Part shown: positions 10,251 to 21,886 of the stretch, piece after piece
Position numbering within the stretch: the first letter of the stretch is position 1
Layout of the letters: each line of letters begins with the position of its first letter
NCBI RefSeq assembly: GCF_963676685.1
Contig: NC_092350.1
Coordinates: 59,768,001 to 59,832,000 of the forward strand
Reading direction: 5' to 3'
From: Mytilus edulis
Taxonomy: Eukaryota
DNA length: 64,000 nucleotides
Position numbers and translations under genes: made by a program
The notes under the pieces: generated by a model
The model's input: the letters and a program-made list of their open reading frames with translations, nothing else
What the model was told of the DNA's origin: nothing
Database searches by the model: none

Positions 10251-10667
10251 AACTGAGAGCAGAATAAAAAAGGAAAAAACCAATTTTCCTCTTTTTTCAC
10301 TCTTAATTCTGACAAGTGCAATTAGAGGCCAAGTTCGGACCAGAACGTAATAAATTTATTCTATAACCCATGTATTAGAGAAAAAATCATGAAAAACAAA
10401 GACAATTCTGTTATATTAGTATTTATTTGTTACATTTCAAAATAAATTTATACTGAAATCTACACTTAGCTGTCCATTTTCAGTCAACTCTCTGTAAAGG
10501 ATTCAACATAGAATAAATTTATTCTAAATGCATGGTGCTTTCGGTATATGATCATTTATAAAATAAATTTATTTTATAGAGCCATAATATCTATTATTAG
10601 TTCGAGAAAATCATAGAATAAATTTATTATACATTCAATGTCATTTATGATTATAACAATATTTAAA

Positions 10668-11335
10668 ATAAATTTATTTTGAAAGTCCAATAATCTGTAT
10701 GGTGAGGCTGTGACACAGAATAAATTAATTCTATTTGAATGCGATTTCGGATTATAATAAAATATAAAATAAATTTATTTTGACGTAAAGTTATCTGTAT
10801 GGTGAGGCTATGACACAGAATAAATTTATTCTATTTGAATGCGATTTCGGATTATAATAAAATATAAAATAAATTTATTTTGAAGTAAAGTAATCTGTAT
10901 GGTGAGGCTGTGACACAGAATAAATTAATTCTAGTTTCAATGCGATTTCGGATTATAATAAAATGTAAAATAAATTTATTTTGAGTTAAGTTATCTGTAT
11001 GGTGAGGCTGTGACACAGAATAAATTAATTCTATTTGAATGCGATTTCGGATTATAATAAAATATAGAATAAATTTATTTTGACGTAAAGTTATCTGTAT
11101 GGTGAGGCTATGACACAGAATAAATTTATTCTATTTGAATGCGATTTCGGATTATAATAAAATATTAAATAAATTTATTTTGAAGTAAAGTAATCTGTAT
11201 GGTGAGGCTGTGACACAGAATAAATTAATTCTAGTTTCAATGCGATTTCGGATTATAATAAAATATAAAATAAATTTATTTTGAGTTAAGTTATCTGTAT
11301 GGTGAGGCTGAGACACAGAATAAATTTATTCTACA
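10668..11335. repeat. 100-bp minisatellite (7 units, 300-bp higher-order repeat) in the left TIR
   Basis: ggtgaggct at 10701, 10801 ... 11301; variants tgacgtaaag / tgaagtaaag / ttgagttaag recur every 300 bp; two AATAAATTTATT palindromes per unit. Confidence 0.95.
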
Positions 11336-13041
11336 TTCAATATGAATTTTGTTCTATATAAAAATAATCTTAAAAGTATTACATGATACAAAATTAAAAT
11401 AATTTAAAAGAAAATTCCAACGGTCTTATTTATTACAGACAAACTGAGAGACAACTTGAAGCTTCGTTATAATGCATCTGGTACTAATCGTTTAGTAATC
11501 TGATCTTTTAGTGACATGCAGATCTGTAGCTGGAATTATTCATCTTCAAACTCTTCTGACCTTTTCAAACAATCATCTTTGTAAATGTAATATTCCCAAA
11601 TACATGTTTCCATTATTCCGTTCAACCAAAGCTATCTGAAAGATCAAATAAAAAAATGCAGTTCATACAAAAAAAAAAGAAAAATGTGTCTATGGGCTAC
11701 AAATGATCCTGCTCGTAAATGTGCACGTGTCAACTTCCACATTCAGATACATGTACAGGATTCAAGTAGTGAAGACAGTTTTGTGATTTTAACATTCGGT
11801 TGAGGCAAACTTAAGTTAGAGAACAGAAACATCCAGCATTGTTTATGGTTATAAATGGGCATAACCCAAGATGGTAAAAGTCTTGCAACATCTTACATTA
11901 ACCTTGTCAAAAACGAATTGTAACTTGTAAAGTAAGCAAATGTTTCAGAGAGATGTACAAGGACTGAAGGAGCAGCCGGATCTGATCGCCGTATAGATAA
12001 GATGTGCAAATGATTGTACAACTGAACATCACATATCAGGCCCTCGCTCTAAAATTCATAATATATTCCTTTTCATAGAGTAACCGATACATTGCACGCA
12101 TTCTTAAAATAATGAATTTTAAATCACTAATAACAATTCCGACCGAACTACAATACATAATTTCATGTTTGCATCACAGCTGAAGATTGACCAATCAGAT
12201 AATTAGATTGTGTTTATCTATTTGAATATTGGAGTTGAAGCAGTGACAAATCCTCGGGTTTTACCATGTATAGGTACACAAACTTAAAACTCAATTTATT
12301 TTTTGTTGAATCATTAAAATTAAATTTGAGATTGTTTTTTTCAAATCTCCTTATCATATTAGACATGTGTTTTAAAAATCTCTGTGATATCTTTTACCGT
12401 TTAGTTTTAAATTGGAATGAAAAATTGTATTTTCCCATAGAGTTTGAGGTAAAATCCTGAGAATTTCACCTCCTAGAAATTTAAAGTGCCAGGATGTTCG
12501 AAAATATGTATTGTCAAAATACATGTATGAATTATATTTAAATTAACACTTTCAAAATCTTTAGCAATGAGATAAGAAAGAACACTTTTTATAAAACAAC
12601 AATTATGAATCTTAATTTCAGCATTCTAAGATACTTCTTTTTTTTTTTTTTTTTACCTCTAAAGATTTTCCTCAAAATGTATCCTTCACTAATGTTCTCT
12701 GTGGTTGTAGTAATTTCTGCCATTTTGTCTGCCTTCTAAACTTTTGTGTTTCTTTAAAAAAAAATCCTTTTGATAGAAGTGTCTGGTGACCTATAAAGAA
12801 CAGCGTATTATATTTTGACTGAAATGGTCATGTTATCCATGAAGATGCAGACTTTTTGTCAATTATTCTGTGTGCCAAACAGATTGCATAAGAGTGTGAG
12901 TACAGTTCTTTAGGTACTTATGAAAATGTTCAAAACTATATTTTTTTTTACATAAAATAATCTCTTGCTCGTTTATTCGTTTTTCGCAATGGTGTGTTAT
13001 TTTTTCATAGACTTATGAGTATAAATATGATCCTTTGGATT

Positions 13042-13159
13042 CAGTGGCGGATCCAGTTAGGGTTCTGTGCTTTGAACACCCTTTTTTTTTACGATCATTG
13101 GTTTTAAATTGGAACAAATGTTTAGAACCCTCTTTTAAAAATGACAGGTCCCGCCCCTG
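13042..13159 (+). mobile_element. CAGTGGCGGATCC..CCGCCCCTG MITE inserted in a Penelope-like tail fragment
   Basis: Imperfect TIRs; flanks cctttgga / ggtatctttc rejoin the tail motif. Confidence 0.55.
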
Positions 13160-16100
13160 GGTATCTTTCACTTTTTGCTAAAATAATAGGTACATTTTCC
13201 ATCCTTCTATGAAACAATTTCATAGCTAGTGTGTCCTAACAGCTGTTCTAAGACTAAGCGTAAAGAAAGTTAACTTTTTAATTTTTTAAATGTTTAAAAA
13301 TTACTTCAACTTTCACCAGTAGGAAATAATAATGAGATTACCAATTAGAAACATTATTAATATCATAATAATTAAACTTAAGATAATAAATAATATTTAT
13401 CTAATAATTTTACGTTCAAACTTATGTTCGCATGTTTTCAGATACCATCTCCAATATAAAAAAAATCACATCATGAAAAAATTAACTTGTTATGTGTTCC
13501 TCTTCTACTAGCTTCAAAATGTATCCAAAATCAAGAATGTGGAACATACTCTATCTGACATAATCATTTAGTAACTGATGCAATTAGTGTCTCGAGCTCT
13601 TTTATGCCCGTCTTGAACATAAAAAACTAAATATAAAATAAACAACTCTGCTAATGCTCAGGTTGGTTGTCATATTATGAAACATAGTTAATAATATAGA
13701 AACCAATGGGGATAACAAAGAACTTCTTTAGTCATACAAAACACAGTCAAAAACCTAAACATACTATCCACACTGATCTGTGTCCACACTTGTAGTATAT
13801 AAATTTATCTTTGTGATATAACAAATTGTCAGAGTAGTAAAGTCAAATTTAGTTATAGCATTAAGCTTTGCTTCATGATACACCTCTTTCTTTAATGATA
13901 TGATTATCGTTATCATAATCAGTTTTGGAGTTCCATAAATGTTTTATTCCAAATTGTACTTGTTTATTATGGAGTGATCGATATTATTCTTATGCAGTGC
14001 TATCGTAAAAAAAATATGCAAATTGATTCGCAGATGCGGATCGATCGAGGATTTGAAAAGGGACATAAGCAGAGACTTATTAAACGTTTAGTATGCATTA
14101 ATCATGTATGTCGGGTATCCACGAGGGGACCCCAGTATCCTTTACCCCCACCCCTCACCCCACCTCTAGTAAACTGAGCAAAACTAACCTCCAATTTCTT
14201 GAACTGTGATGAATGTTTCATAATCGAAACTGGAAAACTATCCCGTCTATGTTTAACTTGTCTTTCCTCCTTTTGATGTCCACTGTCTGTCATCTTCGTT
14301 GCACGTACATAGAGAGAAATACCAAGTGATCATATTATACAAAATTACAGATCAGTGTCATATAAACTGGTCCGCCGTTCCATCTATACAATGTAGCTTC
14401 GCACCGTCAGTGTAGCGATAAGTGAACACAACAGGGGTCCAGTTTAAGTGTCCTGCGTCTTGTCATTAATTATCTTGTGTTTCCATTTGAAGACTTCTCG
14501 GCATGTGGTAACACTATGGGCCTACAATCAACGTACGCGTGCATTACATAAAATTGATAAGGCTTTTAAGCCGCGTTTGTTGTAATTAGTAATAATTATT
14601 TTACAACTTCTGATAGATATGCGGCACTTGTTTGCTAACATACATTAAACAAATCGAAGGTTGTAAATTATTTGAATCTGTGTCATTTCATAGAGGTTTT
14701 TAATGTATGGTCATTTTATATCTTTCAAATAAAATAATATGCTAAACAAAAATGGACAACTACAAAATTATAATGGTCTGGATGGATGGTCCATCGATTT
14801 TGTATTCTTTTGATTTTTAAAACATTTTTTCTATTCTTTATAATTTTGCTCATTATTCTCTATTTGATCATCCTTTTATTTTCTATTCTTTATATCTTTT
14901 TTGTATATGCTATATGTTTTGTCCTTTATTCTGCGTTTCCCAGTCGCGTGATTTGATATTCTGTCAACTCCAACAAGACCCTCAAGTATTATTACCGATA
15001 AAATAGGCGTTTGAGAATGTGTATCATTTTGTCCTATTCTTTCTTTTATTTGTTTTAAAAGATTGGAAAGTAGGTATATATATATGTATGGGTGTTGCTG
15101 AATTTATGGACACTTAAGGGTGACTTGGGAATAGAATTGTCTTCATCCGCCAAAATAGAAAAAAATGTAAAACCCGTATAAAAAGTTTACCGAACTTCAT
15201 CCTGGTCTACCCTTAATTTATTACAGGTATTCCCCATGCATGGTAATACGTATGTATTGTTTTAAAATAGCTTTTCGTTCCGTGCATGCATGCATGAACT
15301 ATTTGACACTGCACGTTCTCAGTCTGCAACCACCAATCTGTCAATCAATCGATTTTATAGAAAAGATGTATCATATCTTACATCAAAACAATGTATAACG
15401 CCACCCGTTCATCTTTTTCTACAAAATGATATATGTGCGGATCACACTGCTGACATTACTAGACCACATATATGACACTTCGTCTATACCTGAGGATGTA
15501 GATGGGGGTTTACAGAATAGAGAATAATGAACAAAAAATAGAAATAATAGTATCGGAAGTATTGGAACAGAATATAAACAAACAGGAACATAAATTGTAC
15601 GGCTTCTAATTATAAATGATTACAGTTCAAACACAGCTGCATCATACATTAAAGTTAACGGTCAGTCAGACAGTCTGCTAAAGTTCACGAAAACAATAAA
15701 TTTACAAATACTTAACACTCTAGGCCAAGGCAAATTAAATACCGATCTTAGATAAGAAATAAATGTGCAAGTTTCACCCTATGACAGTTTTTAGATAAAA
15801 AAAAAAAAAAAAGACGATTTTTAAGTTTGCTGAACACATGTTTAGGCTAAAATTACGTGCATATTCAGGACTTGAACAAAATAACAATAAATCCAGTAGA
15901 TATAGGTTCGTAATGGAATGTCTTCATTGACTTTGTCTTGTGTAAAAAGCTCTTTTGAAATCCCCGCGGGTTTAAGCAACTTTGAAGTAAGTGCTTTGGT
16001 ACTTTCATAGTTTATATATTTTTTAAGTTAATTCGCCATTTATTATTTTATTATTTACATGTGAAACAATAACCCGGATAAATCATTCCAAAAACATGAT

Positions 16101-17581
16101 AGTGCTTACATTTTATAAGAGGATAACGAAATTAGAGAATTATATTTATTTAGATTGATATCCATGATGGAGCAAAGTTTCAACCACTTTTTTATGTCCC
16201 TTTTTACCATAAGATACTCGCGTCATTATTTATATAAAGAATGATGAGGATGACGATAATAACGATGTATGATGTCCAGTGGTAACTATTACATACATAC
16301 ACCCAGAATGACAACATGCTTTATGTTATTAACACGTTTTGTACTAGACAAACTGAGTCAGATGTTTTGACGCATTTTTCAGCAGATACAAATAACTTTG
16401 TAAGAAGACGTGCCAAGACGCATTATTCTAACTTCAATCGTACCAGTATTCAAATGCTTTCATTACTTATAAATGAATGTTTTCTTAACCTTCATTATTT
16501 GTTTGATAAGAGCAATGTTACAGTAATATCATGGAAAAACCATTTTTACGGAAAGCTGGAACACTGAGAAGCTAAGTCAACAGTGTAGTATTCCGGACGT
16601 CAACACCAAAAAACATCATGCAAATATATATATGGGGGATAAGTATACCATTATTTACACATCAGACTGTACTAATTATATTATAACTTTGAATACACCA
16701 AACTAAGTACTTCATATCTGAGTAACAGGCAATGTACGTCCTCAATTTTATAGAACTAATTCATAACTTTTTGTTTCATTTGTATTCATCTTTCAAATGT
16801 GTGTGTTCTGCAAGGTTCAGCAGTCCTTACCCTTTCATTTGATATATGTATCTATATTACTTACCAAAAATGATTCTGCACAGCATATAATATAGTTTGA
16901 TTTAATCACGTAAGAACTACTAAAATTTTTAAATACGTACTTCTTTCCTTTTTGATCGCACCCGAAATGGTTGGTGTAACATCTTACGAAGTCTATTCAT
17001 TGTTTTTGGCAAACTATTTCGCTCTGGCTGTTGCTAGTGGTCGTCTTACACGTGCAGTGCTGTGAGATACTTTTCGTTCCACGTTGAAGGTTTAATGTGA
17101 CTTACAGCGCTGTTCCTTTGCTTAATTTTTTAATGTGTTTTTTTTAATGTGGTTATATTCATTTTCTGTCACGGATTGATACCCAATATTCTTTTTTGTT
17201 TTTCTATGAAAAAAATGTTCCTTTACAAAACATATTGGTATATTCCAAACTTCGATTTTTTTTTAATAACGTAAATGATTTTTAATTTTAGCAAGGAGGT
17301 TATTGTGAGATATTCTAACCTAACTAAACGAAAAAGAGAATTGTAATATAAAATCTTACGATTCTAAAGTTTCTTCGAACAAGATTTGTTATCATATGAT
17401 ATGCTAATTACCCATATCATATTTTAATGACCACATACTGTGCCCATCGTGATCATATAAACCCTAATAAATTATAAACATTCGAATGTAAAATTTCGCA
17501 CGATAGATAATGACAAACAAACGACGGAAATTACATAATAAATCCACAGCGTGTATCTTAATATATTTGTCAGTACATGGA

Positions 17582-17790
17582 TAACCTAACCCGAATAATT
17601 CAGTCGTTATATTCCGCTGATCTACGAAGGCTACATTGTGTGGGAGAAAATCGGACACGGAAAGGGCTTGAATTATTCGAGTTATGGATAACCCGAATAA
17701 TCCAGTCGTTATTACTACGATCACTTCGATCACTCCATTAACCATTTCCTCGAGAAAGTAGTGGATAGGGGCGCTGAATTATTCGAGTTA
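17582..17790. mobile_element. Two nested ~100-bp MITEs with 17-bp TIRs and 9-bp TSDs (AcademH-like)
   Basis: TIR TAACYCGAATAATYCAR. Element A 17587-17684 is flanked by TGGATAACC (17578-17586, 17685-17693). Element B ends at 17790 and is flanked by GTACATGGA (17573-17581, 17791-17799). Confidence 0.85.
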
Positions 17791-19130
17791 GTACATGGAG
17801 GAAAGAATATTCAAAGATTAGGAGCGACGATTCAATATCCATTTGTGTATTGTATTTGTCGTGGTTGAAACGGCACCAGGAACATATCAGGATAGACAAC
17901 AAAAGTCTGTAAGTATCTATTTTATGTATTTATAAATATTAACATAGATCCTATAAGCCTGTCATGCCTTCTGTTGACAAATTTTCTTAACTATGCACTT
18001 TTTTAGTAGACCACCGATGTCCTTTTCGAACTAAACGAAACTCTTTGAAAAGACACACCTCAGTCGAATCTTTCTTCTCAAATGAATGCCTGAATGGTCA
18101 TCAAATTTATACTTGTTATGGGCAAAAAATGTATTAATTCTGACTGCAAGGAATTTTAAATGGTAAATAATATACATTTTATCTCGAGGGAAATGAATAC
18201 ACACTTAGACAACAGTGAATTTTTCATAAATAATATAAAATGGTAAAAGTGTAGCATACACATGATATATATCATGTGTATATCATGTGTATTAACTATT
18301 AAACTCTGGAAGAAATATAGTCAAGCATGAATACAAACTAATGGGTCCTATTTGGAAAACAATAATTTTTCTCAGAAAGGTATCTCTTTCTTCAGAGGTT
18401 TATATGAAACTTTGATGTCTGTTGTGCAGTGATGGTTTTTTTCTTTCTCCGACGCCTGTATGCGAGACATAGTAGGTATTGCAACCCGTCTGACAGTTCT
18501 CAATTGACTGCGACCTCATTTTTATGGTTCATTGGACAATTTTTAGTTGTGTGGTTGGGTCAATTTTTCGGGCATTATAAGCAATAGGTCAATAATATGT
18601 AGTGTATGGAACAACCATGACAACTGTGGTGTCATGTCTATCTGTCGGGGTTAACATGACCTTAACCTAATTGTTTGATGATAAGATGTTGTATTAAGAT
18701 CTGATTCTCAGGTACTATTAGCAACACCAGAACACACCCACAAAATCGCGGTCATATACAGCTTGTGAACTGGGATGATTTTTTGTATTAAAAAGATATT
18801 ATGTATGGAGAATTTCATAAAAAGGTATCAAAAGCCCTCTCCCTTTTTTCAAAGTCTGATATTTGTTTCCTTTCTGTTAAATTCAATAGTTTTTGTGTCT
18901 CTGGTCTCAGACCACAATTATTCTTCTCCTTTGCTACAATGCATCTTTTGGTAAACTTTGCACCGCTCCAAACATGAAATAAATGTAACTGCTTATATTT
19001 AGACCATATTAGTCTAATAAAATATGCTTCTATGACAATCCATCAGTGCTTTTTCTTTTGAGGGCATTATTAACATGCCAATGGTAGGATATGAATCTTG
19101 TATATATGACTGAACGACTAAGGCTAATTT

Positions 19131-19311
19131 GAGGGGTGGTCGGAGGGGTCCTGATCCCGAAATCCCGGGCTTAAAAACATGAAATCCCGAGATGCAGAAT
19201 TTAAAGAAATTCATATCCCGAAATCGAAAAATATATTCCCGGATCCCGCAAGGGTCAATCCCCAAATCCCGAGGTCCCGAAAAAGTCCTGATTCCCTCTT
19301 ATCCCTACCCT
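19131..19311 (+). mobile_element. Short non-autonomous element with repeated ATCCCG(A) motifs
   Basis: gaggggtgg...atcccgaaatcccg...ccctaccct; inverted relative at 22166-22307. Confidence 0.6.
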
Positions 19312-19354
19312 ACTTTCTTTTTTGCCAACTCACTACTTTCAATTTCAACAATAA

Positions 19355-19490
19355 ATTTTATGCCCCATTTTTTGGCATTGTGTTTTCCAGTCTGCGAATC
19401 TGTGCGTTCGTTCGTTTGTTCGTCCTTCCGTCTGTCCCGCTGCAGGTTAAGGTTTTTGATAAGTAAGAAAAAGGCGAGACATTTGCACTC
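19355..19490 (+). mobile_element. Internally deleted Helentron/DINE-like mini-element
   Basis: tttttatgcccc start, cgttcgttcg..ccgtctgtcc microsatellite, end aaggcgagacatttgcactc shared with 22335-22362. Confidence 0.6.
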
Positions 19491-21886
19491 ATATTTTGGT
19501 AATAAAATGTGTAAAGTGTTGACAAAAGTACATGTACCTAAATTTCAATATATTTTTGTATCAGAGTGCCGAAGGCGCATCTTTAACATTTTGAGAGGAA
19601 AATGGATATTTTGTTGAAGGGGGGAATGTGTTGGGTACATTACTTATACTTTTACCTGAGGAAGCTGCTGTTCTTTTTGAAACATGTCTTACTTGTTTTC
19701 TGGTATGTTGAATGCGGTAGGTAAAAGTATTGTCAACACCAGTCCTGTGTTTTGTTTAAAACTTAATGAAACCTGTTTTTAATTGTAATTTGTGTCTTCA
19801 GTTCGCTGTCTCCTAGGCATGAAACATTCATCTGTTTTAAGACTCTATGATTGATTGATTGATTGATCATGACTGGCTGAATGTGCAATGGCAAATATTA
19901 CATGCATATTCAGGAAGTTGGGAACGATTCATGCCAATCCTGATAAAAAATAAAGAAATATGCCTGAAGAAAAACAATAACAGAGTAAGTGTTCCTGCAT
20001 TTTAACTTCAAATATTTCTTGTAGAGTGAGAAAAATGTTATGAAACACCAGCAAAAAAGATTAGATTGTTATTCAGTCCTGACTTATACAGTTTTTCTGA
20101 AGATGGAGATTAGGTATGCAATAATGAGTTTTTAATTTGATAGAGTGTTGACTTTTAAATTGTAAAAGTTTAATGAGTTACTGTACGTTAATCCCTTTAT
20201 TGTATAAAAATTCAACAATTGCTGTTCAAGTGCATAGCATAGCCATCGTTATCTTGCTGTATCCAGAGGCAATATATATATATAAGAAGATGTGGTATGG
20301 GTGCCAATGAGACAACTCTCCATCCAAGTCACAATTTATAAAAGTAAATCATCATAGGTCAAAGTACGGACTTCAACACGGAGCAAGACTGTTATTAATG
20401 ACAATTAAGAGAGTGAATAATATTATATAAACAAAATAGACATCATAATTAAAAGAAAGACAGACAGTTTCTTCATCAAATATAATAAATTTTGGTATGA
20501 TAACTAAAAATGTTTGAAATTGTTTTGAATTTGTCGTTACTTCTTTCAGATCAGGCCTATCCAGAAGCAAGAAAAAGAACAATTCATAGCACGTACATCT
20601 ACAGAGAGAGACATGTTTTAAAAAACAAATTTATTTTCAATTTTAGAAAAATCTGTTGAACTTTTACTATTTCTTATCTGTTTATTTACATTTATATGTT
20701 GATATTTTGTTTTTTTAAATTGCTGCACAGTAATTCTATTCAGTCCCATATAACAAAATCAGCTAAAGAAATTGATATTTTCATATTTCAAGGGAGTGTA
20801 CTTTTGCATTGTTGATAGCAGATATAAGTATTGTCTTAAGTTGGGTTTAAAAACAGTCAGATCGCAACTTCAAATAATATACATTTTTATGAATGTTATA
20901 TGTCATTAAATAGACATGAAAGATGGAAAATTTTATAGGAACACATTTTTTATGACCTAAATGTATTGTCAAGGTAAATTTATTATTTGAACATATTATC
21001 AAAAACACTGCTGGTTTAAAATAAAATTATTCTATGTAGCCTAATGTAATCATACAGATCAGTATATTTTTTCCTAAACAAATTTTACATATTTTTATAA
21101 CCAGAATAAATTTATTCTGTGTCTCAACCTTAACATAATTACTGTACTATCAAAATACATTTATTTTATATATCATAATACTTTTAATCCACATTGAATG
21201 TAGAATAAATTTATTCTGTGTCGCCTCCTTAATATGATAACTGTACTTTCAGAATAAATTTATTTTATATATTATTATACAAGACAAAAATCACATTGAA
21301 CATAGAATAAATTTATTCTGTGTCTCAACCTCACCATACAGATTACATTACTTTCAAAATAAATTCATTTTATATATTATTATAATCATAAATGACATTA
21401 AATGTGAAATAAATTTATTCTGTATCACAGCCTCGCCATACAGATTACTGGACTTTCAAAATAAATTTATTTTAAATATTGTTATAATCATAAATTACAT
21501 TAAATGTAGAATAAATTTATTCTATGATTTTCTCTAACTGATAATAATATCAAGGCTCTTTATAATAAATTTATTTTATAAATGATTAAATACAGAAAGC
21601 ACCATGCATTTAGAATAAATTTATTCTAAGTTGCATCATTTACGGAGAGTTAAATGAAAATGGACAGTAAAGTGTAGAATTCAGTATAAATTTATTTTGA
21701 AATGTATCAAATAAATACTAATATAACAGAATTGTCTTTGTTTTTCATGATTTTTACTCAAATACATTGGTTATAGAATAAATTTATTACGTTCTGGTCC
21801 TATTTTTGCCTCTAATTGCACTTGTCAGAAATTAGAGTGAAAAAAGAGGAAAATTGGTTTTTTCCTTTTTTATTCTGCTCTCTGTT

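Follow-up and report, generated by a model that had tools for sequence, protein, structure and literature searches.

The closest described relatives of the elements studied here are DNA transposons of the AcademH lineage, with which they share a DEAD + Helicase_C helicase, a putative transposase on the opposite strand, short TIRs and TSDs of 9-10 bp (PMC10045372, PMC10799480). The parts of these two papers available to us are silent on inner inverted motifs, on bounded remnants of ~100-210 bp and on cut geometry, and the first ties the AcademH helicase only loosely to TSD length (PMC10045372). A literature search for an excision footprint or mechanism of Academ elements found none; the original AcademH description was represented in it through citing papers.

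Donor sites of P elements keep ~16 bp of each end. In the available portion of an account of this system, P elements are cut at the 3' terminus and, on the non-transferred strand, 17 nt inside, which gives long 3' extensions, and the donor is repaired by end joining or homologous recombination (PMC7776569); we liken the model developed below to this reaction. The 17-nt stagger is a fixed distance and no element helicase is needed, whereas the stagger that we infer for the AcademH-type elements examined here is 44-115 nt long, is set by a motif and goes with a 9-bp TSD and a transposase of an unrelated family.

Nested MITEs are already known. According to the accessible text of a review covering rice and maize, short TIR elements are nested in relatives there as they are in our window, with more than 10% of copies being multimers of mobile and uniform units (PMC5172404); the present genome differs in having two such events in over 1,150 ends, with private junctions. 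In molluscs, the solo LTDRs of KolobokP resemble our short elements: both are short pieces left by a longer DNA transposon, carry flanking TSDs and are common in bivalves. As far as the consulted excerpt describes them, each solo LTDR consists of a single entire direct repeat that has TIRs of its own and is excisable (PMC9587614), whereas the elements considered here are fused left and right arms with variable junctions.

A nested insertion in a host transposon

The window, that is, the whole stretch of 64,000 nucleotides of Mytilus edulis DNA analysed, contains a short element, A, inserted into the left end of a second one, B, which itself lies in a larger transposon:

10251-21886, unstranded: host transposon of B, an 11.6-kb TIR element with a 4-bp TSD (TAGG here)
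17562-17570, unstranded: host site TATATTTGT, duplicated as TSD where a C-type element inserted independently into a sister copy of the host (L031/L068)
17573-17581, unstranded: left 9-bp TSD of B, GTACATGGA, single in the B-less host copies L055 and L056
17578-17586, unstranded: left 9-bp TSD of A, TGGATAACC, single in 19 host copies that carry B only
17582-17586, + strand: first 5 bp of the left TIR of B, cut off by the insertion of A
17587-17637, + strand: left arm of A, 51 nt from the left end of an A-type parent, with its last base 3 nt before the boundary set by the inner motif
17638-17684, + strand: right arm of A, 47 nt from the right end of an A-type parent, starting 5 nt outside the boundary
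17685-17693, unstranded: right TSD of A, TGGATAACC, a duplication that restores the terminus of B at 17689
17689-17742, + strand: left arm of B, with its end precisely on the B-type parent's boundary (TTAAC)
17743-17747, + strand: junction filler of B, 5 bp, similar to an upstream CCATT
17748-17790, + strand: right arm of B, starting at the modal right boundary (CCTCG)
17791-17799, unstranded: right TSD of B, GTACATGGA

A as a whole spans 17587-17684, and its two arms are fused without filler at 17637/17638. From its likeness to the upstream motif we infer that the 5-bp filler of B may be a templated repair insertion. An Rfam search gave no matches.

The host transposon, which is unclassified, is present in 24 genome copies of 11-16 kb, including a young clade at 98-99% identity. 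Its TIRs are long (~800-1100 bp), contain ~100-bp tandem subrepeats and have AACWGAGAG termini; no recognisable transposase ORF was seen in it. We found B in 21 of the 24 copies: alone in 19, together with A in the window, and together with C, a different sister element inserted 20 bp outside the left end of B, in one. The 19 copies with B alone hold a single TGGATAACC and thus represent the empty site of A. Among the three copies that lack B, two show one GTACATGGA, which is the empty site of B, and the third has no TIR there. These natural empty sites show that both duplications are true TSDs and that B was inserted before A. Thus the nesting, the two 9-bp TSDs and the order of insertion proposed in the earlier note are borne out, the first two by the coordinates as well as by the sister copies, and the 17-bp TIR that it assigned to both elements is found exactly at four places across A and B.

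A further insertion that postdates B lies 3.3 kb away in a different host copy. Short elements also occur as passengers of other multicopy hosts (L004/L015/L028; L030/L251/L253/L264; L257/L260-L262; L189-L194; L014/L247); in the last of these groups, L014 and L247 have common flanks and junctions that differ by 8 bp.

Full-length partner elements

The same TIRs bound elements of 9.9, 11.4, 12.7 and 15.6 kb, with a perfect 9-bp TSD in three cases and a degenerate one for the 12.7-kb pair. By profile search, the helicase that they encode matches PF00270 (E 5e-18) and PF00271 (E 1e-17), with a RecQ_Zn_bind match below the cut-off, and DUF6589 (PF20231, E 1e-18 to 3e-8), which we take to be the Academ transposase, lies on the strand opposite the helicase. 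TA...TA (YR...YR) termini are a criterion for AcademH, and elements of this family and of a second one described below start with TA and end with TA. A TSD of 9 or 10 bp flanks 49 of 50 short elements at ≤2 mismatches, and 42 of 50 at ≤1. As far as sequence features can tell, the partner elements fit the AcademH type; the affinity suggested earlier is supported by full-length partners with these TIRs, 9-bp TSDs, a DEAD + Helicase_C helicase and DUF6589.

A 9-kb non-autonomous A-type copy (L058:220-9190) was excluded as autonomous partner; it holds a PF20700 ORF for a Mutator-like transposase, which is probably a nested element. Five distant helicase pairs were also considered, four of which lacked two clear matching ends.

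Short elements end at inner motifs of their parents

Comparison with full-length parents shows that A, B and C are each built from the two outer arms, left and right, of one of three parent subfamilies, A and B being fused outer arms (~50 + ~47 bp) of elements of 10-16 kb. Each parent end repeats TIR bases ~12-23 in inverted orientation 45-60 bp inside; this inner motif reads TTAAC^GCCTGAA at the left end and TTCAAG^CCCTC at the right end, where ^ marks the boundary of the arms.

A pattern search of the genome recovered 347 short elements with inward-facing TIRs. From 110 collected elements we dropped 13 of types for which no parent had been assigned and collapsed copies with shared flanks, which left 64 elements of <130 bp in four subfamilies; this sample is flank-independent, although 30 of its input loci had been picked by likeness to A. 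The left arm ends at or before TTAAC in 63 of the 64 (allowing +1, for a CG microhomology), and the right arm starts at or outside CCCTC in all 64, with the mode one base out (21/64). The boundary lies at 54, 53, 53 and 44 nt on the left and at 52, 46, 49 and 53 nt on the right in the four subfamilies; the limit on arm length is an upper bound tied to the motif and not a set distance. Arm lengths far below the boundary partly reflect measurement noise from substitutions. In several longer copies, just one of the two arms keeps to the boundary.

The pattern holds in a sample taken in genome order. Among the first 50 of the 347 matches, 48 are 76-118 bp long, and 47 of these 48 are without both inner motifs, against a share of 0.16 predicted for this size class by random deletion; 43 distinct centres occur. 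In the short elements examined the arms are conserved, but the junctions are for the most part private, with 50 types among the 64 elements of the collected sample and 13 types among 14 A-type elements with unshared flanks in genome order. They show microhomologies of 1-5 bp, short fillers and, in one case, a filler of 118 bp, which is unrelated sequence between two boundary-length arms (L127).

Groups with identical junctions mostly have common flanks. The filler junction of B has 22 matches, of which 21 are in host copies and one is a truncated piece without right arm or TSD, so that none of the 22 is a TSD-flanked copy outside the host. The truncated piece (L270) ends in a GAATAA microsatellite and was possibly copied from a resident scar. 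A is identical to a copy on C1 at unrelated flanks (L167) and has its junction in common with L175, and two A-type elements have the same 2-bp filler; such recurrence at unrelated flanks can be explained by convergence or by occasional mobility of short elements.

The description of A and B as MITEs with different interiors was not confirmed, as the interiors turn out to be subterminal arms, drawn from two parent subfamilies. Both have the form of a MITE, being short and non-coding with TIRs and TSDs, but the diversity of junctions among the short elements is not that of a uniform family derived from one or a few founders. Such a family does exist here: 22 of the first 30 among 127 intact left ends belong to one A-type family of ~407 bp (383-418 bp), which keeps both inner motifs and has been amplified uniformly. 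Both motifs are likewise kept in a 264-bp D-type MITE, found together with 407-bp copies among L291-L320 (e.g. L296).

Other rearrangements of the arms were also seen. The loci L089, L101 and L085 comprise 49-bp duplications of the left arm that restart at the TIR, which is consistent with re-priming on the TIR start by a free 3' end near TTAAC, and a four-fold 30-bp tandem of TSD + TIR. A 64-bp satellite on C12 (~58.566-58.570 Mb, L091-L099) derives from the right end of a C-type element.

A second helicase family

A second family with a DEAD helicase and DUF6589 has unrelated TIRs and is represented by two 8.2-kb copies with 9-bp TSDs. Its inner inverted motifs lie further in than those of the first family, so remnants near 207 bp are predicted. 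A genome search found 85 short elements of this family. The first 15 are 189-209 bp long and represent 13 junction types, and in all 15 the arms stop within one base of the reference point, which had been set by analogy before the junctions were viewed; the longest arms measure 94 and 115 nt. In one of the 15, the two arms are present at full length and meet at a point free of microhomology. The second family is an independent replication of what is seen in the first. Some of the 85 are longer, up to 295 bp.

TIR junctions and a local hotspot

The earlier note had proposed that the transposase may treat its own TIR as a safe place to land, inserting at a constant offset so that arrays grow at one end and keep a record of the order of insertion. 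We searched the genome (1.37 Gb in 2,368 contigs), in which the 17-mer TIR has 1,150 exact matches and a control none. Outward-facing TIR pairs separated by 0-20 bp are found at three places: the window, the host copy with C and one old tandem duplication. With gaps of 21-250 bp there are none in the genome, and the same pattern facing inward, as a positive control, gives the 347 short elements. Allowing two mismatches raises the outward count to eight places, against two for the control, the extra ones being tandem duplications or chance-level matches. The 24 matches in same-direction pairs comprise the window, two left-arm duplications, the 30-bp tandem of TSD + TIR, two satellites and one tandem of another family, with no nested insertion besides the window. 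These searches found no three-unit insertion arrays.

On these searches the reading of the locus as a growing array is rejected. The N4-TAACC offset that would define a self-regenerating tandem array is found at one of ~1,150 TIR ends, that of the window, and there are no longer insertion arrays. Nor does the comparison with polarised, CRISPR-like addition hold, since there is neither a fixed offset nor a multi-unit array and the units are parental arms instead of acquired foreign sequence. What survives of self-targeting is its kernel: one further near-terminal insertion, that of C, struck the same left end of B in a sister host copy. A uniform model predicts 0.005-0.01 such insertions genome-wide, and two are seen, both at a left end, although the window itself was ascertained; the same model expects ~0.0002 for another hit on this end among the 20 sister copies. 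Chance is therefore disfavoured as the source of the cluster. A general preference for TIRs is nevertheless very improbable, since both events fall on one host site, which accounts for 21 of the more than 1,150 ends, their offsets are unequal (5 bp inside and 20 bp outside), and B itself had landed there before any TIR was present.

Three TSDs of independent insertions (17562-17570, 17573-17581 and 17578-17586) lie within 25 bp. As both near-terminal insertions occurred at one host site where B too had landed, the clustering favours a host-site-specific hotspot over general TIR targeting. A TIR-like 14-mer is present at window position 17520. Around 58 other insertion sites, TIR-like motifs occur three times near and 20 times far, which are equal rates; they are not enriched, and do not explain the hotspot. 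Around 102 insertion sites, no 5-7-mer stands out once the number tested is allowed for, and GC and CpG are nearly flat. We found a weak palindromic target preference, with C favoured at position -3 and G at position +11 relative to the 9-bp TSD (58 sites; 54/116 strand-wise), which the sites of A and B do not follow. Elsewhere, a B-type element (L107, C3:29749199) sits in a chance TIR-like sequence in nearly the register of A in B, which is within chance expectation.

Origin of the short elements

We consider it highly likely, from the structure of their arms and junctions, that A and B, and the short elements generally, are scars left at donor sites by excision. End joining of two long 3' overhangs would leave just such a combination: an upper limit on arm length that a motif sets, arms trimmed to less than this limit, microhomologies and fillers. 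A search for loci at which one copy or allele holds a long element and another a short one gave none, ten flagged pairs being false positives and a further flank that was tried being a tandem repeat, so excision is deduced rather than observed. The best explanation for the scars is probably a staggered cut like that of the P element but much longer, with a helicase unwinding the ends.

In this model, the transposase would make two nicks, a terminal one in one strand and one within the inner motif in the opposite strand, as the ceiling on arm length suggests. Each end would be unwound and folded, and on our reading of the predicted pairing this would place the boundary opposite TIR base ~17-20 in both families; the predicted folds of the left ends are weak (-4 to -7 kcal/mol, with no shuffle control). 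A stagger of 44-115 nt could not separate unaided, which would give the helicase its job: a RecQ-like enzyme would melt the 45-55 bp between the nicks (94-115 bp in the second family). The element would depart with long single-stranded ends and the donor retain two long 3' overhangs, which end joining would trim and fuse into arm, junction and arm between intact TSDs. Scars formed in this way would lack inner motifs and probably be immobile. On balance we lean towards the more specific proposal that AcademH elements excise through a helicase-dependent, structure-guided stagger of 45-115 nt, in which the inner motif pairs with the TIR and the second nick falls ~17-20 bases from the terminus whatever the length of the loop. 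At the window, a B-type element would have entered the host and been excised, after which the host amplified carrying scar B; an A-type element, likely a 407-bp MITE or a longer copy, would then have inserted 5 bp into the left end of B and later been excised.

The main rival is aborted gap repair, in which a conventional cut at both termini is followed by synthesis from the sister chromatid that stalls at the inner motif, at a nascent-strand hairpin or bound transposase, before the ends are joined. This accounts for private junctions, intact TSDs and one-sided longer products, as well as for the truncated B copy that looks template-copied, and both ends do contain self-complementary motifs. 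Stalling, however, is not expected to produce a base-exact ceiling at both ends in two families, with the mode sitting at that ceiling, nor a join of both full arms without microhomology, and it leaves the helicase without a role; we therefore regard gap repair as unlikely. Less probable still is that A and B are ordinary mobile MITEs derived from many independent internal deletions, with the nest as a rare insertion of one MITE into another. Their TIRs and 9-bp TSDs, and the identical copy of A at another site, agree with mobility, and MITE multimers are known (PMC5172404, in the part consulted). A sequence requirement in cis, though, would set a lower bound on arm length where the data show an upper one, no junction dominates by amplification as in the 407-bp family, and no copy of B with a TSD occurs outside the host. 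The value of the nest lies in the scar pattern that it exposes, and the idea of an array should be dropped.

Implications

If the short elements are scars, many short entries listed as non-autonomous AcademH would be dead excision products, each of them dating a past jump, and hundreds of apparent MITEs in this genome would be traces of jumps and would be more numerous than intact copies, with 347 short elements for 127 intact left ends. Under a helicase-dependent staggered cut, the RecQ-like helicase of AcademH would gain a defined job. The scars point to the exact bases at which the second nick is predicted in two families, and the M. edulis genome holds full-length parents with long open helicase and transposase exons together with a natural 407-bp substrate, which would make the proposed excision directly testable.
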